DNA of 64,000 bases from positions 138,283 through 202,282 of the forward strand of contig DAOULU010000006.1 in assembly GCA_034417075.1 (NCBI GenBank), in the 5' to 3' direction. A program made the translations under genes and the position numbers. This stretch comes from Anaerolineales bacterium. Lineage in GTDB: Bacteria > Chloroflexota > Anaerolineae > Anaerolineales > E44-bin32. The notes under the pieces were generated by a model. It made no database searches, was not told the origin of the DNA, and was given only the letters and a program-made list of their open reading frames with translations. Below, piece after piece: positions 15,744 to 63,317 of the stretch; position 1 is the stretch's first letter, and each line of letters opens with the position of its first letter.

Positions 15744-15835
15744 AATACGCAGACGTAGGGAACGATGGACTCCGAAGCGGGCATTTCCTCACTGGGGAGG
15801 TGTTCGAAAGCAAGTCAGAAGGTTTGGAGATGAAA

Positions 15836-18565
15836 ATGAATAAGAAGCGGATCTTGTACCTTACCCTCGCCGTAACACTGTCGCTCTTCGCCCTCGTCAT
15901 GCAGCCCATGGCTTCCGGCTACGCCGGAGGGGGCATTATCGAGGTCAACACGATAGACGACACCGACGACGGCGTCTGCGATGCGGCACACTGCTCGCTG
16001 CGCGAGGCGATCAACTGGGCCAACACCATGGCCGGTACACCGACGATCACCTTCGATATCGCCGGTTCCGGCCCGCACGTCATCGACCTGTGCCATGCGC
16101 TGCCGCAGCTGACCAGTTCGGGCACGACCATCGACGGCACCACAGAACCGAGCTACACCGGAACCCCCGTTGTCGTCGTGCACCCGGCATTTCTTTCCAA
16201 TACCCCGCCGCCGCTGACCCACGTCCCGCCGTGTATTCCGCCTTCGGTCGGTCTGTGGATCGAAACCGACGACATCACCGTGAGAGGCTTGAGCATCGTC
16301 GGTTTTCGCCAGACATGGCCGGCGATCGCCGCCGGGATCGTGGTCGCCAACGGCAGCAACAACCTTATCGATGCAAATTACATCGGTCTGGACGCCAGCG
16401 GCTCACCGGACGGTAACCGCGACGGGATTCTCCTCGGTGCAACCGGCCAAGAGGTTCGTCACAACACCATCTCCGGCAACGACACCGGCATCCACGTCCG
16501 CGCCGGCGAACAAACAATAAACGCTAACCGCATCGGCACGGATTTCTCCGGCAGCACGAGCGGAACCGGAATGGGCAACTACCGCGGTATCCGTATCGAG
16601 CCGGCCGCGGATGCCAACCACATCGGATCCTCCGATCCCATACATAAGAACGTAATCTCCGGCAATACCGCCGTCGGGATCGAGGTGGAATCCGCCGACA
16701 ACATTATCCAGGGTAACTACATCGGCTGCAACATCAGCGGCGATACCGCATTGGGCCAACAGGAAGGTGTGGTGCTCGGAGGCAACAGCAATCTTCTCGG
16801 TGGGAATAATGCCGGTGATGGCAACCTGATCTCCGGAAACGACATCGATGGCGTGATCGTTGGTGGAAGCGGTCACCAAATCCTAGGCAACACGATCGGA
16901 GCAGACATCAACGGCCTCCCATTGGGAAATCAAAATGGCATCTTCAGCATACAAAGTGACAATGTCATCATCGGCACAAACGCCACTGCCTCTGGCAACC
17001 TGATCGCGCATAACAGCTTACATGGCGTGATGCTCTTGGCGAGATCCAAAACTTACCACATCGCCGGCAACACGATCACCCAGAATGGTGGTGACGGCAT
17101 TATATTGGGAACATTTTCCATGAGTCCCGATGTCCCCGAGCAAATCACCATCAACCGCAACAGCATATACGATAACGGAGGCCTGGGGATCGACCTTTAT
17201 CCAGCCGGTGTTACACCCAACGACCCGGGCGATGCGGATTCAGGCCCCAACACGCTGCTCAATTTCCCCGAGCTCAGCCAGGTGACGTCCACCAATGCAC
17301 AGGGAACCGTCTGCGCTAGCTGCCGTGTGGAGGCTTTCATCGCCGACGGCGATCCCACAGGATACGGCGAAGGCATGACCTTCGTCGGGGAAGCGTTCGC
17401 TGACTCCTCCGGCAGCTTGAGCCTTCCACTCGACGTGAACCTGGTTTCCACCTGCGATCTGATCACGACGCGAGCGACAGACGGGGCCGGCAACAGTTCC
17501 GAATTCTCGGAAAACATGCGCGTTTCGCCCTGCTTCACGCTACGTCGGCCGTGGTTATTTGCACCACCCATCCTGCTGGGTCTGCTGGGGTTGCTCGGAG
17601 GCCGCCGCGCAGGACGCGGCAAACCCGGGCTGGCTTCCGCCGCGGGCGGCGCTGCAATCGGCGTCGGGATCGGCGGCGGACTCATCCTCCTAGCGATCGT
17701 ACTGCCCTTTGTGCACATCGAAAAACCACAGGAAGACGTAGGCTTACCCGCCGTGCAGCAGCCCTGCGATCGTTTCCTCGATCCGGCCGGGCTCTCGCCT
17801 GCCGATGGATCGATATTCGAGATCGATGACAACGGCTGGGAATTTACTTGGAGTCCATCACCCGAGATGCCAGATGGAGAGTTCCGCTGGCTCGTCGAGC
17901 TGGCGTCAGCGGACGGCAGCATACAGCAATTGACGACCACCGGAAATTCGCTGCCCTTCCTGTCCTTCGATACTGAAATCTCACAAGGCGCCGTGTTCTC
18001 CTGGCGCCTCAGCGCCGAACAGGCCATCCCCGGTACGGACCGCTGGGAGCCCTTCTGTCGGCAGTTCGCTTGGCACACCTTCCAGTTCGGCGAGCGCCCA
18101 CCGCTCAACGCCCCACCCTGGACGCCCGACGAGTGGAGTGAACCCGAAGACACGCCGACACCAACTTCAACTCCCACAGAAACTCCAACGCCGACTCCCG
18201 AGGAATTGGTTTGTGTGTACGAGGCGCTGCAGAATTCAAACTGCCGCGCCAGCGACTACGCAGAAGCGTTACAAATTTCGATCCTCATGCAGGGCGAGAC
18301 GGCCGAACTGCTAGCCTTGAACCCCGAGTTCTCCTACGGCCAATTCAACCTCGGCCAGGGCGCGTGTTGGATTTGGCTTGGCTTGCTGGACGGACCGGAA
18401 AATCCATTCGATACCTGTGACGTACCGGTCGTCGATCCGCCCTCACCGCCTACGGAGACACCGCCCGCCTGCACACCGGACCTGGATGAAGAAGCGTGTG
18501 TGCTGAGTGGTGGCACGTGGTCGGAGGGCGTGAGTCGAGCGCCCTATTGTGTGTGTCCCGAGTGA
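15836..18565 (+). CDS. Surface protein paralog 2 of 4 (same architecture)
   Basis: Colinear with paralog 1 (HCSLREAINWAN, GIDLYPAGVTPNDPGDADSGPNTLLNFP, GNSSEFSEN, loop GGRRAGRGKPG, end YCVCPE). GGAG lies 6 nt before ATG 15836. ATG 15830 and the TTG-extended ORF from 15740 are less likely starts. Confidence 0.88.
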   Translation: MNKKRILYLTLAVTLSLFALVMQPMASGYAGGGIIEVNTIDDTDDGVCDAAHCSLREAINWANTMAGTPTITFDIAGSGPHVIDLCHALPQLTSSGTTIDGTTEPSYTGTPVVVVHPAFLSNTPPPLTHVPPCIPPSVGLWIETDDITVRGLSIVGFRQTWPAIAAGIVVANGSNNLIDANYIGLDASGSPDGNRDGILLGATGQEVRHNTISGNDTGIHVRAGEQTINANRIGTDFSGSTSGTGMGNYRGIRIEPAADANHIGSSDPIHKNVISGNTAVGIEVESADNIIQGNYIGCNISGDTALGQQEGVVLGGNSNLLGGNNAGDGNLISGNDIDGVIVGGSGHQILGNTIGADINGLPLGNQNGIFSIQSDNVIIGTNATASGNLIAHNSLHGVMLLARSKTYHIAGNTITQNGGDGIILGTFSMSPDVPEQITINRNSIYDNGGLGIDLYPAGVTPNDPGDADSGPNTLLNFPELSQVTSTNAQGTVCASCRVEAFIADGDPTGYGEGMTFVGEAFADSSGSLSLPLDVNLVSTCDLITTRATDGAGNSSEFSENMRVSPCFTLRRPWLFAPPILLGLLGLLGGRRAGRGKPGLASAAGGAAIGVGIGGGLILLAIVLPFVHIEKPQEDVGLPAVQQPCDRFLDPAGLSPADGSIFEIDDNGWEFTWSPSPEMPDGEFRWLVELASADGSIQQLTTTGNSLPFLSFDTEISQGAVFSWRLSAEQAIPGTDRWEPFCRQFAWHTFQFGERPPLNAPPWTPDEWSEPEDTPTPTSTPTETPTPTPEELVCVYEALQNSNCRASDYAEALQISILMQGETAELLALNPEFSYGQFNLGQGACWIWLGLLDGPENPFDTCDVPVVDPPSPPTETPPACTPDLDEEACVLSGGTWSEGVSRAPYCVCPE

Positions 18566-18647
18566 GAGGCTGCATGCGCATTCAGCGAACGGGAATTTCC
18601 GCAGTGAATAGACACGTGAAACCATCCTGCCCCGTAGGAGGTGCAAG

Positions 18648-21509
18648 ATGAATTCTCGATGGATGAAAAAGCTTGGATTGTGCGTATTGAGCACGTTGTG
18701 GCTCTTGATGTTCACCACACCTATGGCGACACAGGCTGGTGGTGGCGTGTTCGTCGTCAACACCACCGACGATCTGGACGACGGCACCTGTGACGCCACA
18801 CACTGCTCGCTGCGCGAAGCGATCAACGCGGTCAACACCTATGCGGGCACGCAGTACATCTACTTTGATATCCCCGGTCCAGGACCGCACGAGATCATGC
18901 TATGCTCGATGCTTCCATCCTTGAGCGACGACGGAACGTTGATCGACGGCACTTCGGAGCCCGATTATGGCGGCACGGTACCTGTGGTCGTGATCAAGCC
19001 GGGGATATTCAACGTGTCTTCCTATCCTGGCTGCACGCCACCACCCATCGGGATCTGGATCGCCGCCAGCGACATAACCGTGACCGGCCTGAGCATCATC
19101 GGTTTCAGGAGTCCTTCCGCATCCATCGCCGGCGGGATCGTGACTCACATGGGCTCGAACGTCACCATCCAGTGGAACTACATCGGCCTGGATCCCTCCG
19201 GAACTCCCGTCGGGAATCGAGACGGGATCCTGATAGGCTCCGAGGCGTCGCAGATCTATTCCAACCGCATCTCGGGCAACGTCATCGGCATTCACGTCTT
19301 CCGCAGCGACCACATCATCCGCTTGAACTACATCGGAACCGATCCCACGGGCACGTCGACCAGTCCTACGCTGAAAAATTCCGTCGGCATCCTGGTGGAC
19401 AATCCTTCTAGCAACGTGCATATCGGAGGCCCGAATCCCGCCTGGATGAACCTCATTTCGGGCAACGACACGGGCGTCCAAGTCGTTACGGACGGTAACT
19501 TCGTGACCAACAATCGCATCGGCGCAGACGCCAGCGGCAGCGCAGGCTTGGGCAATGACACCGGCGTATGGGTCACGGGCAACGGGAACCAAATCGAAGG
19601 CAATCAGGTCAGTGACAGCCAGATCGGCGTGCTGCTGGCCGGAAACAATAATCAAGTCTCCGGCAACTTCATTGGTACGGACGCAAGCGGCGACCTGGCG
19701 TTAGGCAACGACACCGGCGTCCACATCATCGGCAGTGATAACGTCATCGGCGGCGAGATTCCGATCATGCTCGTGCCGGGCAGCACGGCAGGAAACATCA
19801 TCTCCGGAAATGACACGGGCATCTTCCTCGGCCCGAACGCACAGAACAACTACATTAAAGGCAACAAGATCGGTGCCGGCAACAGCCCCGACTCGAGTCT
19901 GCCCAACACTACAGGCATCCTGCTCGATGGCGCCGACAACAACACGATCGGAGGTATCTATCTACCCATGGAAGCCAACTGGGTGATGCACAATATCCAG
20001 GACGGCATCCAGTTCATCACCACCGCCAGCGACAACCTGGTTCAAAACAATTACATCGCCTGGAACGACCGGGGCATCACCGCCGGCGCCACGACCGGTA
20101 CGTCGATCCAGAATACCTTTCACTACAATAACATCTACTATAACGATCAACTCGGTATCGACCTCTTCCCCTGGGGCGTGACCCCCAATGATCCGGGTGA
20201 CGCTGACAGCGGCGCCAATAATCTACAAAATTTCCCCGTGATCAGTTCGGCTACGACCACGACAGCTCAGGGGACCGCCTGTCTGGGCTGCACGGTGGAG
20301 ATTTTCGAAAGCGAAGAGGATCCCTCCGGATACGGTGAGGGCATATCACCTATCGGTGAAAGCCTTACTGACTCCTCAGGAAATTTCAGCATCAGTGTCG
20401 ATCCGCTCTCTACCGCAGGTGTCTGTGATTACGTAACCGCCACGGCGACCGACGCAAACGGCAACACCTCCGAATTTGCAGAGAACTTCCTGATCGGACC
20501 GTGCTTCACGTTCTCACCCCAACTTTTACTCTTCCTGGGTGTGGTTTTCGTGTTCGGTGGTGGGGCCGCCGGCGGGAGGCTCGGACGCGGTCGCGGCACG
20601 CGGCCAGGCCTGGGAACCGCTGCTGGCGCCGCGCTGGGCGGCGTGATCGGTGCCGGTCTGCTCCTCGCAACCTCCTTCATTCCAATTTTCCGTCTACCAC
20701 CAGAAGAGGAACATGTGGTCTCCGATGGCCTGACAGCGCTCGTCCCCTCCTGTAATGCCTACCTCGATCCGCAGGCATTCGTGCCGCAAGATGGCGCGAT
20801 CGTGCTCGACGAAAACTTCGACTTCGCATGGTCCTGGTTGAACGAGCCTTCGAACGGACGGTTCCGCTGGAGCCTGGATTTGAACGGGCCCGACGATTCC
20901 GGCCAGCAAACGACGGAGGATACTTCGCTTCCCTTCACTGCGTTTGGTTTCGCGGTCGACGACGGGGATCGATTCATCTGGCGACTGACTGGCGAGCAAT
21001 TCGACGACTCTTCCGCAGAATGGAAACCCTTCTGTGCACCATCGGCGTGGCTAACGTTCCAAATCGGACTTTCACCATTGCTGGCGCCACCGTGGACACC
21101 GGAAACGCCGGAAGAACTACCTCCGACGCCCACGAGCACACCCGAGTCTCCTGCGGGAGTCTGTCTGTACACAGCGGTACGTAACAGCAACTGCCGCGCC
21201 AGCGACTATCCGGAGTCGCTGCAGATCGATATCCTCATGCAGGGGGAATCGGCCGAACTCCTGGCCTTGAATCCCGAGTTCACCCACGGTAAATTCGAGC
21301 TCGATCACGGTCAGTGCTGGATCTGGCTGGGATTGCTGGAAGGTCCCGATAACCCATACGGCACGTGCAACGTCCCGGTCATCGATCCGCCGCCGCCACC
21401 GACCGCAACGCCACAAACCTGCACTGCGGATTTAGACGAGGACGCTTGCATCGCAAGTGGAGGCACCTGGTCGGTGACGGGCGCTGCGGGATGTGTATGC
21501 CCGGAGTGA
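18648..21509 (+). CDS. Surface protein paralog 3 of 4 (same architecture)
   Basis: 953 aa. SD AGGAGGTG upstream. HCSLREAINAVN, GIDLFPWGVTPNDPGDADSGANNLQNFP, ATATDANGNTSEFAEN, loop GGRLGRGRGTRPG, end GCVCPE. Confidence 0.9.
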   Translation: MNSRWMKKLGLCVLSTLWLLMFTTPMATQAGGGVFVVNTTDDLDDGTCDATHCSLREAINAVNTYAGTQYIYFDIPGPGPHEIMLCSMLPSLSDDGTLIDGTSEPDYGGTVPVVVIKPGIFNVSSYPGCTPPPIGIWIAASDITVTGLSIIGFRSPSASIAGGIVTHMGSNVTIQWNYIGLDPSGTPVGNRDGILIGSEASQIYSNRISGNVIGIHVFRSDHIIRLNYIGTDPTGTSTSPTLKNSVGILVDNPSSNVHIGGPNPAWMNLISGNDTGVQVVTDGNFVTNNRIGADASGSAGLGNDTGVWVTGNGNQIEGNQVSDSQIGVLLAGNNNQVSGNFIGTDASGDLALGNDTGVHIIGSDNVIGGEIPIMLVPGSTAGNIISGNDTGIFLGPNAQNNYIKGNKIGAGNSPDSSLPNTTGILLDGADNNTIGGIYLPMEANWVMHNIQDGIQFITTASDNLVQNNYIAWNDRGITAGATTGTSIQNTFHYNNIYYNDQLGIDLFPWGVTPNDPGDADSGANNLQNFPVISSATTTTAQGTACLGCTVEIFESEEDPSGYGEGISPIGESLTDSSGNFSISVDPLSTAGVCDYVTATATDANGNTSEFAENFLIGPCFTFSPQLLLFLGVVFVFGGGAAGGRLGRGRGTRPGLGTAAGAALGGVIGAGLLLATSFIPIFRLPPEEEHVVSDGLTALVPSCNAYLDPQAFVPQDGAIVLDENFDFAWSWLNEPSNGRFRWSLDLNGPDDSGQQTTEDTSLPFTAFGFAVDDGDRFIWRLTGEQFDDSSAEWKPFCAPSAWLTFQIGLSPLLAPPWTPETPEELPPTPTSTPESPAGVCLYTAVRNSNCRASDYPESLQIDILMQGESAELLALNPEFTHGKFELDHGQCWIWLGLLEGPDNPYGTCNVPVIDPPPPPTATPQTCTADLDEDACIASGGTWSVTGAAGCVCPE

Positions 21510-21582
21510 AACCGATTCGAGAAGATAACGCCATGGAGTCGATCGAAAACCGCAGCCAGAGATTGATGTAAGGGGTACTTTG

Positions 21583-24183
21583 ATGAGAACTCGCAAACAT
21601 GTTTCCCGAGCCTGGCTAGCCCTGTGCCTGCTGGCGATGATGACACTTGCTTTTCCGATCACCGCGGAGGCCAGCACCTTCGTCGTCAACACGGTCGACG
21701 ATCTCGACGACGGAAACTGCGACGCCGATCATTGCTCTCTGCGCGAGGCGATCAATGCCGCCAATGCCAACCCCGGTGCGGACACGATTGCCTTCGACAT
21801 CTTCGGCGCCGGGCCACACGTGATCAAACTGTGCAGCCTGCTGCCCATACTCACCGACGGCGGGACGACGATTGACGGCACGACGGAACCCAGTTATGCC
21901 GGGACGCCCGTCGTTACTTTAACGCCCTCTGCGGATCCGAGTTGTACCCGACCGCACATCGGCCTATGGATCCAATCCGACGGGAACGTGATCCGTGGGC
22001 TGCACACCATCGACTTCATGCATCCAACACTGCAGCACGAATCCGCCATCTACATCGAGCGCGGCGACGGAAACCTGATCGAGTTAAATCACATCGGCTA
22101 TCAACCTACCTGTTCGCTTTTCAACACACAATACGGTGTCCGCATCGACATGGACGCCGGAAACCAGCGCATTCTCAAAAACGTATTCAACTGTAACGGA
22201 ACGGCAATCGATATCTGGGCTGGCAGCCACGTGATCCGGGACAACCTCATCGGCGTCGATCCCTCCGGCACTACGGCCATCCTCAACGGTCTGGGCATCT
22301 ACGTCTACGAAACCGCCCACGGCTCGACCATTCAGGATAACGTGGTATCGGGCAACATCAGCGCCATGGTAGTCAATTCGGACGACAACAAGATCCTGGG
22401 AAACCGCGTTGGTACGGATTGGTCGACGAACATAGCCATCCCCAATCAAGGCGGCATCAAGGTGAACGGCGATCACAACCGCGTCGGCGGCACGAATCCC
22501 GGCGAGGCAAACATCATCGCCGCCAACACCAGCATTGGTCTTGATCTGTACTGCGGCGCGGAATACAACCAGGTGTATGGCAATATCATCGGCACCAATC
22601 TTTCGGGAACCATCATCATGGGCAACCAGTACGGTGTCACCATTATGGGGAACACGAACATCATCGGGGGTATCGGCTCAGGCGAAGCAAACCGCATCCT
22701 CTTCAGCCAGGAAGCCGGGCTCAGCTTGTACGCTTTGGCGCACAAAAACCGCATCATTGGAAACGAGATCGCTTACGGCCACACGCAGGGCATTCTGGGA
22801 ACGAGTTCGATGGGCTTTCCCGAATCCAACACCTTCAGCCGAAACAGCATCCATCACAATCGTGCCCTGGGAATCGATTTGGAACCTGCGGGCGTCACGC
22901 CAAATGATCCGGGAGACGCGGATTCCGGCCCCAACACACTGCTGAACTTTCCCGTGCTCCAATCCGCCAACGTGAACACGGCCGAAGGAGACGCCTGCCC
23001 GGGCTGTACCGTGGAGATCTTCATCGCCGATTCGGGCAAAGGCGCATTCGGCGAAGGTATGAACTTCGCGGGAAGCGGCAACGCCGATCCGAGCGGTCAT
23101 TTCTCGATCCCGTTAAGCGGGGTCGGTTTCTGCGATCCGCTCACCGCCACCGCCACTGACGGCGCAGCCAACACCTCCGAGTTTGCCAAGAACATCCTGG
23201 CCAGCTGCCTGACGCTCGTATTCCCTTGGCCCGATCTCCTTTTGCTGGCGTTCATTTTTGCTGGCGCCCTGGGCAACGGGCGTCGCGGCCGAGGTAGATC
23301 GCCGGGTCGATATGCCGCCATCGGCGGCGCTGCTGGCGCAGTATTCGGCATCGCCCTGCTGACCCTGGGCAGTGCGCTTCCTAACATGCACTTGGAATTG
23401 CTCCCTCCAAAAGGGGAACCGAAGAGTGAACCACTTTGCAGCGAGTTGCTTCTACCGGATGGGTACGCTCCACCGGCAGGCGCCGTGTTCCAAACCAGCG
23501 AAGACCCATTGCTTTCCTGGACGCCGGGACCCGGCGCCGCCGACGGGATCGTCTGGCAGGTAGAACTCAGTGCACCTGACGGCTCAATTTTGAATCAAAC
23601 GACTCAGGAGACAAGCATCGCCTTCAGCAGCTTCATGTTCCCCACTCAACCAGGATTTTACCGCTGGCGCATCACCGCCAGAGAGGGCAATGCCCCAGGA
23701 GCCCTGGGGAAAGCCTTATGTTCACCGACATCGTGGATGCCGCTTTCCTTCGAAGGACCACAGCGCGAGGAAACACCGGAAGAAACGCCGACATCGACCC
23801 CCACGCCGACTCCCACAGAAGAGACGTCAGCATGTGTCTACACCGCGCTGCAAAATGCCAACTGCCGGGAGAGCGACTACGTCGAATCGGATCAGATGGC
23901 CATTCTCATGCAGGGCGAAAGCGCCGAACTGTTGGCGTTGAACCCCGAGTTTACCCACGGTGAGTTCGAGGTCGATCAGCACCAATGCTGGATCTGGCTC
24001 GGGTTGCTGGACGGTCCTGAAAACCCATACGGCACATGCGACATTCCAGTCGTTGATCCGCCTCCACCGCCGACCGCGACGCCACAGATTTGCACAGAGG
24101 ATTTGAACGAGGAAGATTGCGTGGCCAGCGGCGGTGTATGGTCCGAGGGAATCACGGATCGCCTCTACTGCATCTGTCCTTAA
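21583..24183 (+). CDS. Surface protein paralog 4 of 4 (same architecture)
   Basis: HCSLREAINAANANPGADTIAFDI, GIDLEPAGVTPNDPGDADSGPNTLLNFP, ATATDGAANTSEFAKN, loop NGRRGRGRSPGR, end YCICP. ATG at 21583 (TTG at 21580 also possible). Confidence 0.9.
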   Translation: MRTRKHVSRAWLALCLLAMMTLAFPITAEASTFVVNTVDDLDDGNCDADHCSLREAINAANANPGADTIAFDIFGAGPHVIKLCSLLPILTDGGTTIDGTTEPSYAGTPVVTLTPSADPSCTRPHIGLWIQSDGNVIRGLHTIDFMHPTLQHESAIYIERGDGNLIELNHIGYQPTCSLFNTQYGVRIDMDAGNQRILKNVFNCNGTAIDIWAGSHVIRDNLIGVDPSGTTAILNGLGIYVYETAHGSTIQDNVVSGNISAMVVNSDDNKILGNRVGTDWSTNIAIPNQGGIKVNGDHNRVGGTNPGEANIIAANTSIGLDLYCGAEYNQVYGNIIGTNLSGTIIMGNQYGVTIMGNTNIIGGIGSGEANRILFSQEAGLSLYALAHKNRIIGNEIAYGHTQGILGTSSMGFPESNTFSRNSIHHNRALGIDLEPAGVTPNDPGDADSGPNTLLNFPVLQSANVNTAEGDACPGCTVEIFIADSGKGAFGEGMNFAGSGNADPSGHFSIPLSGVGFCDPLTATATDGAANTSEFAKNILASCLTLVFPWPDLLLLAFIFAGALGNGRRGRGRSPGRYAAIGGAAGAVFGIALLTLGSALPNMHLELLPPKGEPKSEPLCSELLLPDGYAPPAGAVFQTSEDPLLSWTPGPGAADGIVWQVELSAPDGSILNQTTQETSIAFSSFMFPTQPGFYRWRITAREGNAPGALGKALCSPTSWMPLSFEGPQREETPEETPTSTPTPTPTEETSACVYTALQNANCRESDYVESDQMAILMQGESAELLALNPEFTHGEFEVDQHQCWIWLGLLDGPENPYGTCDIPVVDPPPPPTATPQICTEDLNEEDCVASGGVWSEGITDRLYCICP

Positions 24184-24352: not shown

Positions 24353-25498
24353 ATGAGCCTTCCCTCAAGAATAAAATCAACCACACTCGTTTTCATACTG
24401 GTGACGAGCATCATCCTTGCGGCATGTCATTTCCCAGGAATGGGCCCCACGCCGGACTTGTTCGCCACCTCCGCTGCAGAAACCGTTTCCGCACGGCTTA
24501 CGCAACCAGTGGAACCCGGCACAGATGAGACAACAGAGCCCGAGCCGCCCGTGATCGCCACGACCGAAGCCCCACCGACAGAGGAACCCCCTACGCCAAC
24601 GACTACGCTCACCCCCACGATCACGCAGACCACAATCCCCTGCGATCGCGCCAGTTTCGTTTCGGACGTTACCATCCCCGACGGGGAGGAATTAGAACCG
24701 AACGAGAGTTTCACCAAAACCTGGCGGTTGAAAAATAACGGTTCCTGCACCTGGACCTCCAGCTACGCGCTCACTTTCGACAGCGGTGATTCGATGAGCG
24801 GACCTGCATCCAAACAGCTTACCAGTGGAACTGTAGCACCTGGCGCCACAATGGACGTCTCCGTCAATCTGACGGCGCCGAGTTCGCCGGGAACGTACAA
24901 AGGTTACTGGAAACTGCGCAACGGATCGGGAGTGAATTTCGGAATTGGAACTGGCGGCGTAAATCCTTTCTGGGTTGAAATCAAGGTCGTTCCCAACACA
25001 ACCACGGTTACCATTCCCATGAAAGAAATGGAAAGCGGACAAGTGCAGTCCACCGGCTCGACAGGCTTTGGAAGGTACGTGGGGGATAGCCACACGAATA
25101 CGTCCACACAAGCCTTCGTCAGCTTCGATATAAGTGCGATACCTTCGGACGCCATCATCACGGAGGTCACGATAAAGATTAGTAATTTCAACGATACCGG
25201 AGATCCATTTGGCGATTTGGGACCTATGTTCATCTACAAAGATGATTACGGTAGCTTGGATTCGACCGACTATGTAAGCAGCACTCCAGGGACAGGTCGG
25301 CTTATCGCCTGGAATTCAACCTCTCAATTGGGAACCACGATCCCCGACAACGACATGGTCAATGCGGTTCAGAGTAAAGTGGGTAGCAGTCGCTTTAGAG
25401 TTCGATTCCAATTCGCCAACGACACGAACAATGATAACGGCGCCGACTATCTGGAACTGGTCTCGATTGTGATCAAGGTAACCTACTACACGCCATAG
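24353..25498 (+). CDS. Lipoprotein with NBR1-like Ig domain and C-terminal beta-rich domain (cassette A)
   Basis: Lipobox ILAAC, PT/E-rich linker. The CDRASFVSDVTIPDGEELEPNESFTKTWRLKNNGSCTWTSSYALTFDSGD...PGTYKGYWKLRN pattern is typical of bacterial 'next to BRCA1'-type Ig-like domains. SD GAAGGAG upstream. Confidence 0.85.
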   Translation: MSLPSRIKSTTLVFILVTSIILAACHFPGMGPTPDLFATSAAETVSARLTQPVEPGTDETTEPEPPVIATTEAPPTEEPPTPTTTLTPTITQTTIPCDRASFVSDVTIPDGEELEPNESFTKTWRLKNNGSCTWTSSYALTFDSGDSMSGPASKQLTSGTVAPGATMDVSVNLTAPSSPGTYKGYWKLRNGSGVNFGIGTGGVNPFWVEIKVVPNTTTVTIPMKEMESGQVQSTGSTGFGRYVGDSHTNTSTQAFVSFDISAIPSDAIITEVTIKISNFNDTGDPFGDLGPMFIYKDDYGSLDSTDYVSSTPGTGRLIAWNSTSQLGTTIPDNDMVNAVQSKVGSSRFRVRFQFANDTNNDNGADYLELVSIVIKVTYYTP

Positions 25499-25517
25499 GC
25501 GCATTACGCAAGTTTAT

Positions 25518-25557
25518 AAAATCCCCGCCATTCTCATCCACGGCAGGGATTTTTTTA
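25518..25557 (+). terminator. Rho-independent terminator of cassette A
   Basis: ATCCCCGCC (25521-29) pairs with GGCAGGGAT (25542-50) with one mismatch, followed by a T6 run. Confidence 0.7.
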
Positions 25558-25727
25558 TTGCCGCCGAAGGTATTGCCAGCGGCCTTGAAGGCCATATCTC
25601 AGCGATCCGCTCACCTCCGCTGACGCAGACGGTGCTGCCAACACAATCTCCCATTTTGTATAAGCCCATGATACACAAGATTGGTTGTCCGGCAGGAATG
25701 CAGTACGGCCTATGCGCAAAGGGCCAC

Positions 25728-25756
25728 TTGTCAAAATCCGCAGGTCGCTGTAGCAT
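25728..25756 (+). promoter_or_regulatory. Putative sigma-70 promoter of lipoprotein cassette B
   Basis: TTGTCA, 17 nt, TAGCAT. Homologous to 24241-24269, with the shared block CAGGTCnnTGTAGCATCCTGrTAC. Confidence 0.45.
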
Positions 25757-25831
25757 CCTGGTACTTGCAGCCTGCCATGTGCAACGCCCCAGGCGCACGG
25801 ATAAGTAGATTTCAAAACGAAGGAGTTCGAG

Positions 25832-26980
25832 ATGAGCCCTCCGGCACGATTGAGAACAACACTCATTTTAATGCTCGCGATCAGTATCGTCCTATCGGCG
25901 TGCAATTTCCCCGGTATGGGTGCCACACCGGATCTGTTCGCCACATCTGCAGCGCAAACCGTCGCCGCCCGTCTCACCCAACCAGCGGGACCGGGCAATG
26001 ATGGGACCACGCCACCCGAGCCACCGCAGATTGCAACAACCGAAGCCCCTCCAACGGAGGAACCACCTACGCCCACGTCGACCATAACGCTGACGCCCAC
26101 GATCACGCAGACCACAATCCCCTGCGATCGCGCCAGCTTTATCACGGACGTCACCATCCCCGACGGAGAAGAATTGGAACCGAACGAGAGCTTCACCAAG
26201 ACCTGGCGCCTGAAAAACAACGGCTCCTGCACCTGGACCTCCAGCTATGCGCTCATTTTCGACAGCGGCGATTCCATGGGAGGACCCGCATCCAAACAGC
26301 TTACCAGCGGGACCGTTGCACCCGGTGCCATTATGGACGTCTCCGTCAACTTAACGGCGCCCAGTTCGCCGGGTACCTACAAGGGATACTGGAAACTGCG
26401 CAACGGTTCCGGGGTAAATTTCGGCATCGGTACCGGCGGCACCAATCCGTTCTATGTCGAAATCAAAGTCGTGCCCAACACGGCCACGACTACGGTTCCT
26501 CTCGTCGTTGGCGAAAGCGGTCAGGTCACGAAAAGCACCTATATCTCCGGGGATAAAATTGCCGGAGATAACGGATCGAACGATTCGTCCCAGGCTTTCC
26601 TTAGCTTCAACATCACCGGAATCCCGTCGGATGCCGTCATTACGGAAGTCGTCATCGATCTCGGTGACTTCACCGTGATCGGGACGCCGTTCTCAGCTTT
26701 GGGGCCACTGTTTATCTACAAGGATGATTATGGCGGTTTGGATGCCTCCGACTTCGTCAACAGCACACCATCTTCCGGCCGACTCATAGCCTGGAATTCA
26801 ACATCAAGCTTGGGGAACGCCGTCTCGGATAACGACATGGTCAACGCCCTGCAAACCAAAGTGGGATCGAGTCGCTTCAGATTGCGTCTGCAGTTCAACA
26901 AACAAACCGACAACGATGGCGCAAGCGATCACCTGACTTTCAACACTGTGATCCTCAAAGTCACCTACTACACGCCCTGA
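25832..26980 (+). CDS. Lipoprotein with NBR1-like Ig domain and C-terminal beta-rich domain (cassette B, paralog of 24353-25498)
   Basis: Lipobox VLSAC. The N-terminal two thirds are near-identical to cassette A and the C-terminal third is clearly more diverged. SD GAAGGAG upstream. Confidence 0.85.
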   Translation: MSPPARLRTTLILMLAISIVLSACNFPGMGATPDLFATSAAQTVAARLTQPAGPGNDGTTPPEPPQIATTEAPPTEEPPTPTSTITLTPTITQTTIPCDRASFITDVTIPDGEELEPNESFTKTWRLKNNGSCTWTSSYALIFDSGDSMGGPASKQLTSGTVAPGAIMDVSVNLTAPSSPGTYKGYWKLRNGSGVNFGIGTGGTNPFYVEIKVVPNTATTTVPLVVGESGQVTKSTYISGDKIAGDNGSNDSSQAFLSFNITGIPSDAVITEVVIDLGDFTVIGTPFSALGPLFIYKDDYGGLDASDFVNSTPSSGRLIAWNSTSSLGNAVSDNDMVNALQTKVGSSRFRLRLQFNKQTDNDGASDHLTFNTVILKVTYYTP

Positions 26981-27132: not shown

Positions 27133-28809
27133 ATGGTTGCGAATGTGCTCGTAGTTGAAGAGACGGAAGAATTCGGGTCTTTGATCCGTAACGCGCTCGA
27201 AGACACCGGGCGGTATCAGGTGTCACTGGCGATGAACGCTGACGAGGCGATCGAGATCGGAGATCGGGAAAATATCCACTTGCTAATCATCGACTTCGAT
27301 CTCTCCGAAGCCGATGCACCGGCCTGTATTCAACGCATCCAATCCACCAATCCGGACATGGCCATTATCGCCATTCCGCCCAACAACGATCCACACGATC
27401 CTGCCTTTTCAAGTCTCTCAATCCGCGGCGTGCTGACGAAGCCTTTTTACCTTCCCGAACTCAACGAGATCGTCTCCGCAGCGATAGATCTGCCAACGCA
27501 GGCTGTGGAAACGGATCAGATCCGGGAATCCATCCCGCAGGAACCCCCTTTCAGCGAGGCCGCGGAACCACCAACGCCCTGGCCTAACGACGTGGATCAA
27601 GCCACGCAGCACCTCGCCAGGGTATGCGGCGATACGTCTGCCGAAGCGTTGATCCTCTTGCATCACGGCCAGCGATGGGCACAAACGGGTGGAATTACAC
27701 CGGATCAAGCCGAAGGACTTGCGGTCAAGATTGCTGAAATTGGAGTCGGCGCTGGCGCCCGTGGAGCAATCACCACCCTGACTCGTTTACCAGGCACAAA
27801 GCGGGATTGCATCCTGTATGCCAATGGTCTGATACCGAATTGGATTTTGGCGCTGGTTTATCCCTCCGGCACATCCTTCGGGATCATCCGCCGCCAGGCT
27901 GGGCACACCGCGGACAGACTCAAATACATGGACCTGGATGATCACGAGGAAGACCTCCCTCCCATACCGACGTCCGCGCCCGATACCGCACCGATTTCAG
28001 CTCGAGACGAAGAAGATACATCGTTCGATGAAATCTTCGGTGTGGAGCCAGATGCCCAGGAAATTCCGTTTTTCGAAGATCTCGACCTGCCTCCCAAACC
28101 GATCCCTGCGCCCGATACCGCACCGATTTCTGCTCGAGACGAAGAAGATACATCGTTCGATGAAATCTTCGGTGCGGAGCCAGATGCCCAGGAAATTCCG
28201 TTTTTCGAAGATCTCGATCTTCCCCCTCCGGAGCCGGATGAAACGCCAGCGAAGGTTGACGAGGACCGGATCGAAGAAGCGGACACCGCTGCAGCGATTC
28301 CGGGGGATTGGGTGCCGGACAAACCCAAACCTGAATCCCACCTGCCTTTCCTCGAAGAAGGCGCCTTCCCGAGTACGGACTCCGCATCAACAGCGCTGGA
28401 GCCCATCCCGCTGCCCGACGCGGAGTACTACCTCCCCGTCACTGCAGTGCTTGTGCCTCGGTTCCCGGAACACCGCCTGACGGGTCCCCTTGTGGAAAAT
28501 CTACAGGAATGGGTGGTTCGCCTTTGCCTGGCGTGGGATTGGCGCGCGGATGAAGTGTCGATCGAACCCGATTATCTCTGCCTGACGATGAGCATTTCCC
28601 CGGAGACGGCGCCTTCGAACGCGGTTCTCCGGCTTCGGGATGATCTATCACAGCGGATACTCAGCGCATTTCCCGAATTTGTAGACGACCTGCCTTCCCG
28701 ACGTTTTTGGGCGCGCAGCTACCTGCTGATCACCGGCGGACCACCGCCAGCGAAACGACTGCAAGAGTTCGTCGAAACCACACGCAAGAGCCAAGGGATC
28801 GAAATCTAA
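27133..28809 (+). CDS. Receiver (REC)-like domain, acidic repeat linker, C-terminal IS200/TnpA (Y1 transposase)-like domain lacking the HUH motif
   Basis: N-terminus VLVVEETEEF...HLLIIDFDL...LTKPF resembles a CheY-like receiver, with EE in place of the DD pocket. The C-terminus aligns by eye to IS200 TnpA: YLPVTAVLVPRF (YHIVFxxKYR), PDYLCLTMSISPE (xDHxHxLxxxPP), RFWARSYLLITGG (FWxRGYYxxTVG). Confidence 0.7.
   Translation: MVANVLVVEETEEFGSLIRNALEDTGRYQVSLAMNADEAIEIGDRENIHLLIIDFDLSEADAPACIQRIQSTNPDMAIIAIPPNNDPHDPAFSSLSIRGVLTKPFYLPELNEIVSAAIDLPTQAVETDQIRESIPQEPPFSEAAEPPTPWPNDVDQATQHLARVCGDTSAEALILLHHGQRWAQTGGITPDQAEGLAVKIAEIGVGAGARGAITTLTRLPGTKRDCILYANGLIPNWILALVYPSGTSFGIIRRQAGHTADRLKYMDLDDHEEDLPPIPTSAPDTAPISARDEEDTSFDEIFGVEPDAQEIPFFEDLDLPPKPIPAPDTAPISARDEEDTSFDEIFGAEPDAQEIPFFEDLDLPPPEPDETPAKVDEDRIEEADTAAAIPGDWVPDKPKPESHLPFLEEGAFPSTDSASTALEPIPLPDAEYYLPVTAVLVPRFPEHRLTGPLVENLQEWVVRLCLAWDWRADEVSIEPDYLCLTMSISPETAPSNAVLRLRDDLSQRILSAFPEFVDDLPSRRFWARSYLLITGGPPPAKRLQEFVETTRKSQGIEI
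27952..28215 (+). repeat. In-frame tandem direct repeat, 2 x 132 bp (44 aa each), plus a partial third start
   Basis: Unit 1 27952-28083 is DLPPIPTSAPDTAPISARDEEDTSFDEIFGVEPDAQEIPFFEDL. Unit 2 28084-28215 is DLPPKPIPAPDTAPISARDEEDTSFDEIFGAEPDAQEIPFFEDL. DLPPPEPD follows. Confidence 0.95.
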
Positions 28810-49575: not shown

Positions 49576-50250
49576 TTAAGTATCCGAGACGTTTGTTTCT
49601 CTTTGCTTGCTCCAGCGCGCCCGCACATACAAGCTGAACCTAGAAAGCATTTGTTGAAATCTGCTGCCGGCCGTTCGTACCTGGGGTATGCGCAGAAAGA
49701 GCAGCAGCACCACAATCGCCATGTAAACCAAGGGTACGCGAACGTCCGATTTCACCAACCAGGTATAGTGCACCGTCGCAAGGAGCGTCCCGAGGTAGAT
49801 GGAACGATGCAGTCGTTTCCAATTCTTACCCAACCTGCGCTGCCAACCCCGGGTTGACGTGATCACCAAAGGTATGAGCAGAAGCCCCGAGGCGAGGCCC
49901 ACCAACGCAAAGCGTTTACTGAAAAGCGCATCTTTCAAGGATCCGAAATCGAACCCGTAGTCGATGCCGATGAAAATGAAGAAATGCAGCGCCACATAGC
50001 ACGCCGCATAGATGCCCAACCACTTACGCACGGGGATCAATAGCTTAAAACCAAAAAGAGTGTTCAACGGCGTAATCGCCAGCGTAATCGTCAACAGGAC
50101 GAGTGCGGTTTTGCCCGTACGCAACGTCGCCGCCTGAATGGGGTTGGCCGTGAGGTCGTTCTGATACCAATCGAAAAGCAGCAGGCCCATCGGCGTCAGG
50201 GCAGCTACATGGATGAGGAGTTGGATTCCGATTCGGCGCAACCTTGTCAT
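49576..50250 (-). CDS. msrQ: Protein-methionine-sulfoxide reductase heme-binding subunit MsrQ
   Basis: Ferric-reductase-like 6-TM protein with conserved His residues. Its start overlaps the msrP stop. Confidence 0.85.
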   Translation of the reverse strand: MTRLRRIGIQLLIHVAALTPMGLLLFDWYQNDLTANPIQAATLRTGKTALVLLTITLAITPLNTLFGFKLLIPVRKWLGIYAACYVALHFFIFIGIDYGFDFGSLKDALFSKRFALVGLASGLLLIPLVITSTRGWQRRLGKNWKRLHRSIYLGTLLATVHYTWLVKSDVRVPLVYMAIVVLLLFLRIPQVRTAGSRFQQMLSRFSLYVRARWSKQRETNVSDT

Positions 50251-51206
50251 CAGAAAAAGATCGATGGGCTCATGTCGGGATAGAGAAAAGCGACCTCATT
50301 GGCATATCCATTGAAGAGTAAGGTATCTCTTCGGCTGATTTCTCCGATGCGGCGTTCTTTTGCCTGAGACCAGCGAGGATGGGGTACCTCCGGGTTGATG
50401 TTGGCGTAAAATCCGTACTCGTTTGGCGAAGCTGCCATCCAAAGAGACGTCGGCTGTTCCGAAACCAGATCGATCTTGACGATCGATTTGATGCTCTTAA
50501 ATCCGTATTTCCAGGGCACAACGAGCCGGATCGGAGCGCCGTTTTGAGCCGGAAGATTCTTTCCGTACAAGCCGATAGCCATGAGCGTCAGATCATGCAT
50601 GGCCTCATCGATGCGCAATCCTTCGACGTACGGCCATGCGTACCAGGGGGTCTTCTGGCCCGGCATCTGATCCGGATCGTAAAGCGTTTCAAAACGGACG
50701 TATTTGGCATCTCCCATCGGTTCGACGTCCTCCAGCAACCGGGCCAGGGGAAAGCCATTCCAGGGTATCACCATCGACCATCCCTCGACGCAGCGCAAAC
50801 GATAGACACGTTCTTCCTGCTCGAAGCCGGCCAAATCGTCGATGTCGTATACCTTTGGGTTATGGACCAAACCTCCAACTTCGACCTGCCAAGGCGAAGT
50901 GCGGAAATTCCCTACGCGATCGACAACGGTCGTCTTGTCCGTGGTAAATTCGTAAAAATTGTTGAAATGGGTAATGTCCGTATAGCTGTTCACCGGATCC
51001 CCCAGTTCATCCGTCAATGCGCTGCTTTCCGGCTGCATAGTCTCATCGGCCGACGAAAGCTGAGTAGCAGCTCCTCCACCACAAGCAGCCAAGAGCAGCG
51101 AGCCCGAGGCTAGTGCTCCAGCACTTTTCAGAAAATCGCGTCTCGATAGATAAACGTGCTCCGGAGTAATTTCTGAGGGATGTATTTCAACCATTTCAAC
51201 CTCCAC
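50250..51206 (-). CDS. msrP: Protein-methionine-sulfoxide reductase catalytic (molybdopterin) subunit MsrP
   Basis: Tat signal [13 protein letters not shown]. YedY-type core ([43 protein letters not shown]). Confidence 0.9.
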
Positions 51207-52359: not shown

Positions 52360-52723
52360 CGTACACCTCCTCTTGAAGATAATTACAGGTAGGCACTAAT
52401 CACTAGAAAAGCTGCAAATATTCCCGGATAGAACACCTTTGTCAGCCAAAATTCTCGAGATTATCGACTGTCGCTACATTGTTAGTAACACCCGTACTCC
52501 TGCGAAGCCTCACAGCAGTTCGATGATGGAGAGAATGTAGGATTTGTTCCCTCGAGGGAACATTCTACAACCTTTAAGTACGACTCTCTCGATTTGGTTG
52601 CCTATCCCAAAGCATCTGCGATATACTCGTGACTTGTCACATTAAATATCGGCCCGAACCACAAACCGGGAGATCTCCTCCCGGTTGTGCATGACAAGGA
52701 ATTCGGAGGCAATGGAGGACACC

Positions 52724-52960
52724 ATGGCCAAAGTCAGCATCGAGTACTGCGCCGTTTGACACTACACGGATCGAGCCGTCCGTGCGATGGCTGAAGTCCT
52801 GCAGAAATATGAAACCAGAATCGACGAGATCACACTGATACCATCCGACGGCGGACGCTTCGAAGTCACCGTCGACGGCACACTGGTATACTCCAAACTC
52901 GCCACCGGACGTCACATCGAATCAGGTGAGACCGCAAAATGTGTCGGAGAACATATTTAG
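52724..52960 (+). CDS. selW: SelW/Rdx-family selenoprotein, in-frame UGA (Sec) at 52757-52759
   Basis: GGAGG lies 5 nt before ATG 52724. Translation is MAKVSIEYCAV-U-HYTDRAVRAMAEVLQKYETRIDEITLIPSDGGRFEVTVDGTLVYSKLATGRHIESGETAKCVGEHI. It has the CxxU redox motif and the GGxFEVxVDGxLxxSK signature of the Rdx fold. Absent from the ORF track because of the TGA. Confidence 0.85.
52765..52784 (+). promoter_or_regulatory. Candidate bacterial SECIS hairpin
   Basis: CACGGA (52765-70) pairs perfectly with TCCGTG (52779-84) around an 8-nt loop UCGAGCCG. It begins 5 nt after the UGA. Confidence 0.55.
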
Positions 52961-52972
52961 GAGGAAAACCCA

Positions 52973-53962
52973 TTGACAGCAAAGAAGGGACGCGTCTTTT
53001 CCGGTGCCAGACCGACCGGGCGCCAACATCTAGGTAATTACCTAGGCGCCATCAAGAACTACGTGGCGCTGCAAGATGAATTCGAATGCATTTACTGCAT
53101 CGTCGACTTGCACGCCTTGACGACACTTGAGACGACCAAATCGCTCAAGACGAACACCTACGAGATGGCACTCGATTGGCTCGCTGCAGGACTGCGGCCG
53201 GAGGAGACGATCATCTTCGTTCAATCCCACGTCCCGGAAGTCACTGAGCTGCATACCATCCTTTCAATGGTCGTAGGGCTCGGGAAACTGACCGATCTAC
53301 CCACCTTCAAAGAAAAAGCGCGGCAGCAGCCGCATAACATCAACTACGGTCTGGTAGGGTATCCAATTTTAATGGCAGCCGATATTGCTCTCTATAAAGC
53401 GGGATTTGTGCCCGTAGGAATCGACCAGGCACCGCACCTCGAATTTGCCCGCGAGGTCGTGCGTTCGTTCAATCACCGCTTTGAAACGGATGTGTTGATC
53501 GAGCCCCAGATGAAAAGCACGGAGGTTCCCAAAGTCCTCGGCACGGATGGCGTGCAGAAAATGAGTAAAAGCCTGGATAACCACATCGAACTGGCCGCTA
53601 CGCCGGAGGAGACCCTCGCACGCGTGATGACCATGGTGACCGATCCGCAGCGAAAGCGCCGCTCGGATCCTGGGAATCCCGACGTGTGCAACGTCTTTAC
53701 GATGCATAAAATCTTCTCTACGGAGGAGGACGTCAAAGAGATCAACATCGAGTGCCGCCGAGCAGGAATTGGCTGCGTGGATTGTAAGAAGCGATTCGCC
53801 GAGAATCTGAACGCACATCTAGCCCCCTTCCGAGAAAAACGGTCCAAGCTCAGCGAAGATCCCGATCAGGTCTGGAACATCTTGGCGGATGGGGCAGCAC
53901 GCGCCAAACGAATTGCCACGCAAACGATGATCGAGGTACGCGAAGCCGTAGGATTACCCTGA
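52973..53962 (+). CDS. trpS: Tryptophan--tRNA ligase
   Basis: Class I motifs: HLGNY (HIGH variant) and KMSKS. TTG start 12 nt after the selenoprotein stop, with GGAGGA upstream. Confidence 0.95.
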   Translation: MTAKKGRVFSGARPTGRQHLGNYLGAIKNYVALQDEFECIYCIVDLHALTTLETTKSLKTNTYEMALDWLAAGLRPEETIIFVQSHVPEVTELHTILSMVVGLGKLTDLPTFKEKARQQPHNINYGLVGYPILMAADIALYKAGFVPVGIDQAPHLEFAREVVRSFNHRFETDVLIEPQMKSTEVPKVLGTDGVQKMSKSLDNHIELAATPEETLARVMTMVTDPQRKRRSDPGNPDVCNVFTMHKIFSTEEDVKEINIECRRAGIGCVDCKKRFAENLNAHLAPFREKRSKLSEDPDQVWNILADGAARAKRIATQTMIEVREAVGLP

Positions 53963-54154: not shown

Positions 54155-54598
54155 ATGCGTGCGGTGCTGCAGCGCGTTCGTCGAGGTCGCGTGTCCGTTG
54201 AAGGCAAAACCATGGCGGAGATCGATCGGGGACTGGTCATACTCGTCGGTGTCGGTCACGAAGATACCGCGCAGGAAGCCCACAGGTTGGCGGAAAAATG
54301 CGCTGCGTTGCGAATCTTCGAGGACGATGAGGGGAAAACGAACCTTTCGATTCTGGATATCGAAGGGCAGGCCATCGTGATCTCCCAATTTACGCTGTAT
54401 GCCGACACGCGCAAAGGTCGCAGACCGAGTTTTACCAAAGCCGCCAAGCCGGAGACAGCAGAACCACTCGTAGAGATCTTCACATCCCACTTACGAGCGC
54501 AAGGCGTGCAGACTCAAACCGGCGTTTTTGGGGCGCACATGCTGGTGGAAATCGAAAACGACGGGCCGGTTACTATCCTGCTCGAACGTAACCCATAG
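54155..54598 (+). CDS. dtd: D-aminoacyl-tRNA deacylase
   Basis: MRAVLQRV..., [29 protein letters not shown]. Confidence 0.94.
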
Positions 54599-62891: not shown

Positions 62892-63317
62892 TCACTGCAT
62901 GTCGGTTGGATTTACACGCCGCAGCTTCTTGATTCGCGAACGGCGGCGCTTCTCCATTAAACGGCGTTCTCTGGCGGCTTTGCTGGGTCTCGTCTTCTTG
63001 CGAGGTTTTCGTCGCTGCGCTGCTCGCCGGATGAAGTCGATCAAGCGGTCGATCGCATCCTGACGGTTGCGGGTTTGCGTACGAAAGCGGCGCGCGTTGA
63101 TGATTAAGACGCCTTCTTTGTTGATCCGGTTGCCGGCCAGGCGCATCAAGCGTGCGCGCACGGTCTCGGGCAGCGATGGAGATCGACGGACATCGAAACG
63201 AAGCTGCACCGCTGTGGCGACGCGATTCACGTTCTGCCCGCCCGGGCCGGCTGCCCGGACGAAGTCGAATTGCAATTCATCTTCATCGAGTGAAATGTCT
63301 TTGGTGATTGGGATCAT
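62892..63317 (-). CDS. arfB: Alternative ribosome-rescue factor ArfB (peptidyl-tRNA hydrolase)
   Basis: GGQ motif AAGPGGQNVNRVATAVQLRFD and a basic C-terminal tail (KPRKKTRPSKAARERRLMEKRRRSRIKKLRR). Confidence 0.92.
   Translation of the reverse strand: MIPITKDISLDEDELQFDFVRAAGPGGQNVNRVATAVQLRFDVRRSPSLPETVRARLMRLAGNRINKEGVLIINARRFRTQTRNRQDAIDRLIDFIRRAAQRRKPRKKTRPSKAARERRLMEKRRRSRIKKLRRVNPTDMQ

Follow-up and report, generated by a model that had tools for sequence, protein, structure and literature searches.

Does a TGA codon that falls inside an otherwise uninterrupted reading frame mark the end of a short, meaningless open reading frame (ORF), or does it encode selenocysteine (Sec) at the active site of a protein? 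This question is raised by positions 52724-52960 of a 64,000-nucleotide stretch of an Anaerolineales bacterium (GenBank assembly GCA_034417075.1, contig DAOULU010000006.1, positions 138,283 to 202,282 of the forward strand), which we refer to as the window and whose internal coordinates are used throughout. A first-pass annotation, made from the letters alone, had proposed that the locus holds an unannotated selenoprotein gene of the SelW/Rdx type, followed by a hairpin and placed in one operon with trpS. On the strength of sequence comparisons, we hold with high confidence that 52724-52960 is a genuine SelW/Rdx-family selenoprotein gene with the active site Cys9-Ala-Val-Sec12, in which codon 12 would be decoded as Sec. 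The features that define the gene are the following:

52724-52960, plus strand: predicted coding sequence (CDS) of an Rdx/SelW-like selenoprotein with a thioredoxin fold and the motif Cys9-x-x-Sec12 (Pfam, TIGR02174, PDB 2FA8 and 80 orthologues).
52714-52718, plus strand: Shine-Dalgarno (SD) sequence GGAGG, separated by a 5-nucleotide (nt) spacer from the ATG (direct reading).
52748-52750, plus strand: codon TGC of Cys9, within the CxxU redox motif (alignment of 81 sequences).
52757-52759, plus strand: UGA codon 12, taken as selenocysteine (TGA in 81 of 81 sequences; Cys in homologues).

Direct reading of the letters bears out the proposed frame, which starts at ATG 52724-52726 (with GGAGG 5 nt before it), stops at TAG 52958-52960 and comprises 78 residues including Sec12. 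The TGA of codon 12 is the only one in the frame and lies inside C-A-V-U, so that the read-through product is MAKVSIEYCAV[U]HYTDRAVRAMAEVLQKYETRIDEITLIPSDGGRFEVTVDGTLVYSKLATGRHIESGETAKCVGEHI, with GEHI at the C-terminal end. The antisense ORF at 52637-52915, which had been called spurious, is present and has no Pfam match. Translation would begin at ATG 52724, Sec would be inserted at UGA codon 12 instead of termination, and the mature protein would presumably cycle between a selenolate/thiol state and a Cys9-Sec12 selenenylsulfide, reducing some thiol-based substrate.

Family membership was assessed on the protein in which U had been replaced by C, and the assignment to Rdx held. The Pfam Rdx model (PF10262) was matched with E=5.5e-21 and 75 bits (cut-off 22.6) over residues 3-74, and hence across the TGA, while TIGR02174 (CXXU_selWTH) was passed with 54.5 bits against a cut-off of 34.2. 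The top-scoring NCBIfam model was NF041051 (SelTWH_Campy), to whose equivalog the protein is not assigned, since its 75.1 bits fall under the curated cut-off of 88. Among proteins of solved structure, the sequence matched the bacterial SelW-related Atu0228 (2FA8, E=7e-12, the lowest value obtained), SAV_2001 (3DEX), 2OBK, 2P0G, 2OKA and 2OJL, with its CxxU lining up with the CxxC of 2FA8 and 3DEX; these Cys forms differ from the window protein in carrying CxxC in place of the Sec motif and in having about 100 residues, with longer tails, against 78. Mouse SelW (2NPB) belongs to the same Rdx superfamily and shares CxxU and the b1-a1-b2-b3-b4-a2 fold, but is distant (18% identity) and gave a marginal sequence match only (phmmer E=0.58).

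The structure was modelled with AlphaFold2 on P0010, a full-length Cys homologue that is 58% identical to the window protein. The model (predicted local distance difference test, pLDDT, 95.4) has the topology b1-(CxxC)-a1-b2-b3-b4-a2, in which the redox motif sits between strand 3-10 and helix 16-33, and its template modelling (TM) scores were 0.86-0.94 to 2FA8, 2OBK and 2P0G, 0.66 to mouse SelW and about 0.5-0.6 to thioredoxins. Judged on this modelled homologue, the thioredoxin-like b1-a1-b2-b3-b4-a2 fold of the Rdx family is predicted for the window protein as well, and its active site Cys9-Ala-Val-Sec12 is placed where strand beta1 meets helix alpha1.

The behavior of the TGA during evolution was followed in a scan of genome contigs (one genome per species) that yielded 423 relatives; the analyses were made on the best 80 of these 423 plus the window, giving 81 sequences. 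All 80 are Anaerolineae/Chloroflexota, and they include the isolates Thermanaerothrix daxensis GNS-1 and T. solaris, together with a metagenome-assembled genome (MAG) of Anaerolinea thermophila. TGA stands at the same codon in 81 of 81 sequences and TGC or TGT in none, though the query had Cys at this position. In P0010, P0018, P0020 and 2FA8, which are Cys homologues, the aligned residue is the second Cys of CxxC. A pseudogene, or a sequencing or assembly error, in which a Cys codon (TGC/TGT) was turned into or misread as TGA in this MAG might be entertained, as the contig is metagenome-derived and a single base separates TGC from TGA. Such an accident is effectively refuted by the identical TGA in 80 of 80 independent genomes (cultured isolates among them), it sits badly with a downstream ORF that is intact and diverges with a bias to synonymous changes, and we accord it practically no probability.

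Coding constraint also bears on where the gene begins, for public gene calls place its start behind the TGA:

52787-52960, plus strand: 57-residue ORF from Met22, a gene-finder call that we regard as an annotation artefact (called in L001, L002 and NCBI/Logan records).

Could this shorter ORF be the real gene, with the 11 codons upstream and the TGA being a leader ORF or non-coding sequence? It is, after all, the product given in public annotations, and it still matches Pfam Rdx. A protein so truncated would be devoid of strand beta1 and of the family-defining active site, CxxU/CxxC, and its Met22 codon is usable as a start in just 40 of the 81 homologues. By contrast, every one of the 81 sequences has an in-frame start codon upstream, which stands at a distance of 10-12 codons from the UGA in 78 of them, and an SD-like motif lies ahead of this start in 78/81. 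The peptide I-x-Y-C-A-V ahead of the UGA is moreover under in-frame purifying selection: over the 11 upstream codons 5 changes separate the window from its closest relative (L003), all of them synonymous, and over codons 6-11 the comparison with the 80 relatives gives 199 synonymous against 76 non-synonymous differences. Positions 1 and 2 of the Tyr and Cys codons before the TGA are invariant in the 81 sequences and position 3 wobbles (TGC/TGT for Cys9). In-frame coding conservation was found on both sides of the UGA. We thus consider a gene starting at Met22 highly improbable and retain the full-length selenoprotein frame.

The public records themselves carry the imprint of the TGA. A protein search returned mostly entries of 57-62 residues that span only the C-terminal 70% of the query, which is the signature of gene callers restarting past a TGA. 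Three true Cys forms were among the rest, as were two entries in which W occupies the Sec position. The truncated 57-residue call bears the names 'Rdx family' and 'selenoprotein W-related', so that the first-pass annotation was right in that the full-length gene had not been called, and wrong in treating the locus as wholly unannotated. The two W entries are P0014 (CAVWHY) and P0023 (CANWHY), and in the one that was checked at the DNA level (L087:61-297) the codon reads TGA, by which the W is explained as an artefact of a translation table with TGA=Trp.

These W entries, together with a Sec machinery that was not seen in the window, are what speaks for a different decoding of the UGA, by near-cognate tRNA-Trp or tRNA-Cys or under an alternative code, with Trp, Cys or Gly at position 12. 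The artefact just described removes the former, and TGA is the stop of 16 of the 38 long ORFs in the window, whence the genetic code is standard. Position 12 aligns with the catalytic Cys and is chemically sensible only as Sec or Cys; a covarying hairpin at the distance of a Sec insertion sequence (SECIS) tracks the TGA and decays in the Cys forms (see below), and SelB has been reported in the lineage (PMC4959059). We deem a non-Sec decoding very unlikely. Taken together, the conservation of the UGA, the upstream coding signal and the standard code lead us to exclude pseudogenization, sequencing error, an alternative code and a 57-residue gene. When the window was searched for further ORFs interrupted by TGA, the output was too noisy, and the Rdx gene was the only one to combine a clean CxxU with unoccupied sequence.

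Two overlapping, mutually exclusive hairpins lie behind the UGA:

52774-52792, plus strand: SECIS candidate, with a 7-bp stem AGCCGUC/GAUGGCU and a 5-nt apical loop CGUGC at 52781-52785 (minimum free energy, MFE, fold and covariation).
52765-52784, plus strand: hairpin of the first-pass annotation, CACGGA (52765-52770)/TCCGTG (52779-52784); present, but in our judgment not the functional element.

The second of these had been put forward as the SECIS. It does exist, with its 8-nt loop, and amounts to -8.1 kcal/mol when folded alone, but its mean pair probability is 0.07, as opposed to 0.87 for the 52774-52792 hairpin, which is the MFE structure (-10.1 kcal/mol alone) and begins 14 nt after the UGA. 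Both were scored on an ungapped alignment of the 81 sequences against shuffled columns. The CACGGA/TCCGTG hairpin remained at the level of the shuffles (65.4% paired vs 65.7%; covariation 0.071 vs 0.068), and the SECIS role once given to it thus falls away. The 52774-52792 hairpin showed 75 double-sided changes, compared to 24.7 +/- 10.3 in the shuffles (0 of 500 reached 75), with a covariation score of 0.372, against at most 0.184 for slid registers. Part of this covariation is synonymous at the protein level: the Ile codon AUC is accompanied by the Ala codon GCG (9 sequences) and AUU by GCA (6 sequences), with exceptions in 0/15, and pairings of the same kind join GCU to GCA (11) and GCC to GCG (10).

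A hairpin of at least 5 out of 6 base pairs, 11-15 nt after the UGA, is present in 80/81 sequences, in one of two registers. This coexistence of two registers within one orthologous group is an observation in its own right: in 61 sequences the stem begins 14-15 nt after the UGA, and in 19 it is shifted (columns 21-42 of alignment A2, equivalent to 52771-52792 of the window), forming a 6-bp CCGGGC-[CGUGA]-GCCUGG located 4 nt further upstream, with an 11-nt spacer. The apical loops (GGUCU in 26, CGUGA in 16, GGUGC in 15, AGUCU in 8, and others) follow the pattern xGUxx: the 80 sequences that could be classified all have G in second place, and 79 have U in third. When the 61-sequence class was given to RNAalifold the stem was recovered, 4 of its 6 pairs showing compensatory changes; as this class had been chosen for its pairing, only the compensatory changes count as evidence.

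The Cys forms served as controls (n=2), and in both the hairpin is degraded, with 3/6 pairs in L083 (TGT) and 4/6 in L085 (TGC); in the Sec paralogue next to the L085 Cys form all 7 bp of the stem are intact, and the loop is GGUCU. The two L085 paralogues are arranged in tandem upstream of dtd, the Cys form (CAPC, TGC) at 1152-1400 and the Sec form (CFT-TGA) at 1446-1694.

In the SECIS of the Escherichia coli fdhF type, the element bound by SelB is an apical stem-loop located about 11 nt after the UGA, whose loop contains G and U. The hairpins of the window group resemble it in being intragenic, in lying 11-15 nt after the UGA and in their loops (GGUCU/GGUGC/CGUGx), and differ from it in lacking an identified bulged U and in their unrelated sequence. 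The SECIS of eukaryotic SelW is of another type, situated in the 3' untranslated region, whereas the window hairpin lies within the CDS. A small G-containing apical loop is described as a hallmark of bacterial SECIS elements in published surveys (PMC1088965, PMC2398784). We therefore regard 52774-52792, a conserved and covarying hairpin with a small G-containing loop just after the UGA, as a SECIS candidate, to which SelB would bind.

Several points weigh against the selenoprotein reading and its SECIS. RNAalifold found no consensus when given the full set of 81, a failure that we ascribe to the mixing of the two registers, and the Rfam covariance models found no match in the hairpin region (52730-52840) even at E<=10, a miss that says little either way because bacterial SECIS elements are gene-specific and Rfam may hold no suitable model. 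The shuffle control from which the excess of double-sided changes derives ignores phylogeny, the structure so tested was taken from the window's own fold, the 61- and 19-sequence classes were assigned post hoc, and the negative controls amount to two Cys-form loci. The local fold of the window is unremarkable (z=-0.58). As for the Sec machinery, no tRNA genes were found in the window, and no tRNA-Sec in the window or in 60 relative loci; Pfam detected no SelA, SelB or SelD among the 26 window ORFs scanned (the other ORFs being identified by eye), and crude regular expressions, which provide a weak negative, detected no signatures of a SelB-like GTPase, SelD or SelA in either the 64-kb window or the relatives' flanks (475 kb). 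Finally, we know of no biochemical function for any bacterial Rdx protein.

The first-pass annotation had also implied that the machinery is encoded elsewhere in the genome, and the literature offers some support from the lineage. A. thermophila UNI-1 and Anaerolineales single-cell genomes encode a Sec-specific elongation factor, and no Sec-annotated dehydrogenase was reported for A. thermophila (PMC4959059); Sec-containing formate dehydrogenases are known from an Anaerolineae-related genome (PMC3971608). The indirect evidence is strong: unless Sec is decoded, one can hardly account for a UGA that has been kept over class-level evolutionary time and is accompanied by a hairpin that covaries. 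We infer that the source organism decodes Sec and should have selA, selB, selC and selD in its genome.

Downstream of the selenoprotein gene, two genes for aminoacyl-tRNA metabolism follow on the same strand:

52973-53962, plus strand: trpS, tryptophanyl-tRNA synthetase (TrpRS) of the [4Fe-4S] type, 329 residues (Pfam tRNA-synt_1b, 218 bits; PDB 2G36).
54155-54598, plus strand: dtd, D-aminoacyl-tRNA deacylase, third gene of the cluster (Pfam Tyr_Deacylase, 189 bits).

The trpS gene starts with TTG at 52973, 12 nt past the Rdx stop, and has its own AGGAGG. Its product carries the motif C239-x21-C261-x6-C268-x2-C271 (window 53687-53785), and the closest solved TrpRS is the [4Fe-4S] enzyme of Thermotoga maritima (2G36, E=2.6e-79), with which the four Cys ligands align. 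The motif of such enzymes, C-x(21-24)-C-x6-C-x2-C, is located in the anticodon-binding domain (PMC2954223), and the window TrpRS belongs to this (TmTrpRS) type by its sequence, so that cluster binding is predicted.

The proposed operon of Rdx and trpS finds backing in its recurrence. Rdx precedes trpS on the same strand in 62/80 loci (L003-L082); the spacing between the two ranges from -7 to +211 nt, with -4, -1 and 0 as frequent values. The four-Cys motif is kept in 55 of these 62 Rdx-adjacent trpS genes and missing in 7. The dtd gene is downstream in 67/80 loci; the order Rdx-trpS-dtd is found in 52/80, and Rdx is directly followed by dtd in 14. One Cys-form Rdx overlaps trpS by 4 nt, and no terminator-like site was found on the plus strand from Rdx to the end of dtd. 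The Rdx gene would thus appear to head a conserved Rdx-trpS-dtd transcription unit in Anaerolineae, with co-transcription suggested by the spacing and the synteny.

Such coupling invites one more reading of the UGA, in which the 11-codon ORF that ends with it is a regulatory leader peptide tuning trpS-dtd and the Rdx protein is secondary. The tight, often overlapping Rdx-trpS arrangement in 62/80 loci would suit it, as would a conserved leader RNA and the fact that tRNA-Trp is the main near-cognate reader of UGA. It leaves the conservation of the full-length Rdx fold and active site unaccounted for, trpS has an SD sequence and start codon of its own, 14 loci have Rdx before dtd and no trpS, a Cys form also precedes trpS, and no attenuator or terminator structures were seen on the plus strand. 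A leader peptide is, in our estimate, extremely unlikely, and the selenoprotein remains the reading that we carry forward.

Two further elements were noted upstream of the gene:

52598-52627, plus strand: promoter-like site TTGCCT-18 nt-TATACT, about 97 nt before the start codon (consensus scan).
52633-52698, plus strand: 5'-leader stem-loop with the outer stem CUUGUCA/UGACAAG and the inner hairpin CCACAAACCGGGAG...CUCCCGGUUGUG at 52660-52689.

The consensus scan found 3 promoter-like sites where 1.6 were expected, a count that is not significant alone. The whole promoter block GATTTGGTTGCCT...GATATACTC is shared without a change by L003-L005, the three relatives closest to the window, and in them the arms of the leader stem-loop are nearly invariant too. 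The leader (52628-52730) folds at -35.6 kcal/mol (z=-2.05), and the segment that comprises the promoter-like site and the leader stem-loop (52598-52698) is conserved above the level of CDS synonymous sites in the same three relatives. Rfam gave no relevant match, T-box included, for the whole window at the gathering threshold or for the leader at E<=10. Control of trpS by a T-box or attenuator was considered and rejected, as it has neither an Rfam match nor a plus-strand terminator.

About 1.5 kb upstream, an msrQ/msrP-like pair is encoded on the minus strand (49576-51206; Ferric_reduct and a molybdopterin oxidoreductase with a twin-arginine translocation, Tat, signal), and a response regulator and a YtxH gene stand between this pair and Rdx. 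The pair is probably unrelated to the Rdx gene, given that it is syntenic in only 3/80 loci.

What might Rdx do beside trpS and dtd? A functional partnership can be imagined, in which Rdx would keep the Cys ligands or the [4Fe-4S] cluster of TrpRS reduced or repaired, or would tie the charging and proofreading of tRNA to the redox state; or else Sec decoding may be coupled to the output of TrpRS, as tRNA-Trp, charged by this enzyme, is the main near-cognate competitor for UGA. We consider this unlikely as it stands: the partnership is weakened by the 14 loci without trpS beside Rdx and by the 7 adjacent trpS genes without the four-Cys motif. No report of a link between Rdx and trpS/dtd was found in a literature search that was neither exhaustive nor aimed at trpS/dtd specifically. 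If true, either the partnership or the decoding coupling would be a first lead on what bacterial Rdx proteins do.

Elsewhere in the window, a 558-residue ORF (27133-28809, plus strand) joins an N-terminal Response_reg to a C-terminal IS200-like Y1_Tnp domain (Pfam), an unusual fusion. Four tandem paralogous ORFs of about 870-950 residues (13107-24183, plus strand) share the N-terminal VVNTxDDxDDGxCD, and the one that was scanned has a weak NosD/beta-helix match; two ORFs of about 381 residues, paralogous to each other, come next (24353-26980, plus strand), and the one that was scanned has an N_BRCA1_IG domain. A 141-residue protein with an RF-1 domain (62892-63317, minus strand) appears to resemble the ArfB/YaeJ-type ribosome-rescue peptidyl-tRNA hydrolases.

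Bacterial SelW-like selenoproteins with CXXU were described in 2005 as proteins of unknown function with few known Cys homologues, and no prokaryotic selenoprotein family is more abundant in the Sargasso Sea (48 genes) or Global Ocean Sampling (GOS, 427 genes) data sets; in the accessible portions of these surveys, Anaerolineae are not among the organisms named for the family (Zhang & Gladyshev 2005-2008; PMC1088965, PMC1794560, PMC2398784). The window gene is like this family (PF10262, TIGR02174) in its hidden Markov model (HMM) assignment, the position of CxxU, its small size and its fold, and also in the intragenic SECIS candidate with a small G-containing loop after the UGA and in the scarcity of Cys homologues; the window group differs from it in the conserved coupling to trpS/dtd and in the presence of two SECIS registers within one orthologous group.

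The claim of a Sec-containing CxxU gene of the SelW/Rdx type is thus carried by the family HMMs, by a TGA in 81/81 sequences with coding conservation on both sides, and by the fold. The window gene has every family feature testable here and is a known kind of selenoprotein, an ordinary member of its family. Mildly new are the Anaerolineae-wide mis-annotation, the two SECIS registers in a single orthologous group, and the coupling to a Fe-S-type trpS and to dtd. For annotation quality this means that at least 80 species-level Anaerolineae genomes (of the 423 relatives) are recorded with a protein of 57-62 residues that is devoid of its active site, or with Trp in place of Sec. The correct call adds a selenoprotein to a lineage for which a Sec-specific elongation factor has been reported in A. 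thermophila (PMC4959059), and the 81 candidate SECIS elements, with their compensatory changes and two registers, form a clean natural data set on which SelB recognition in Chloroflexota could be modelled. As to what bacterial Rdx proteins do, the close association with a Fe-S-type trpS and with dtd seen here is a new, if modest, clue.

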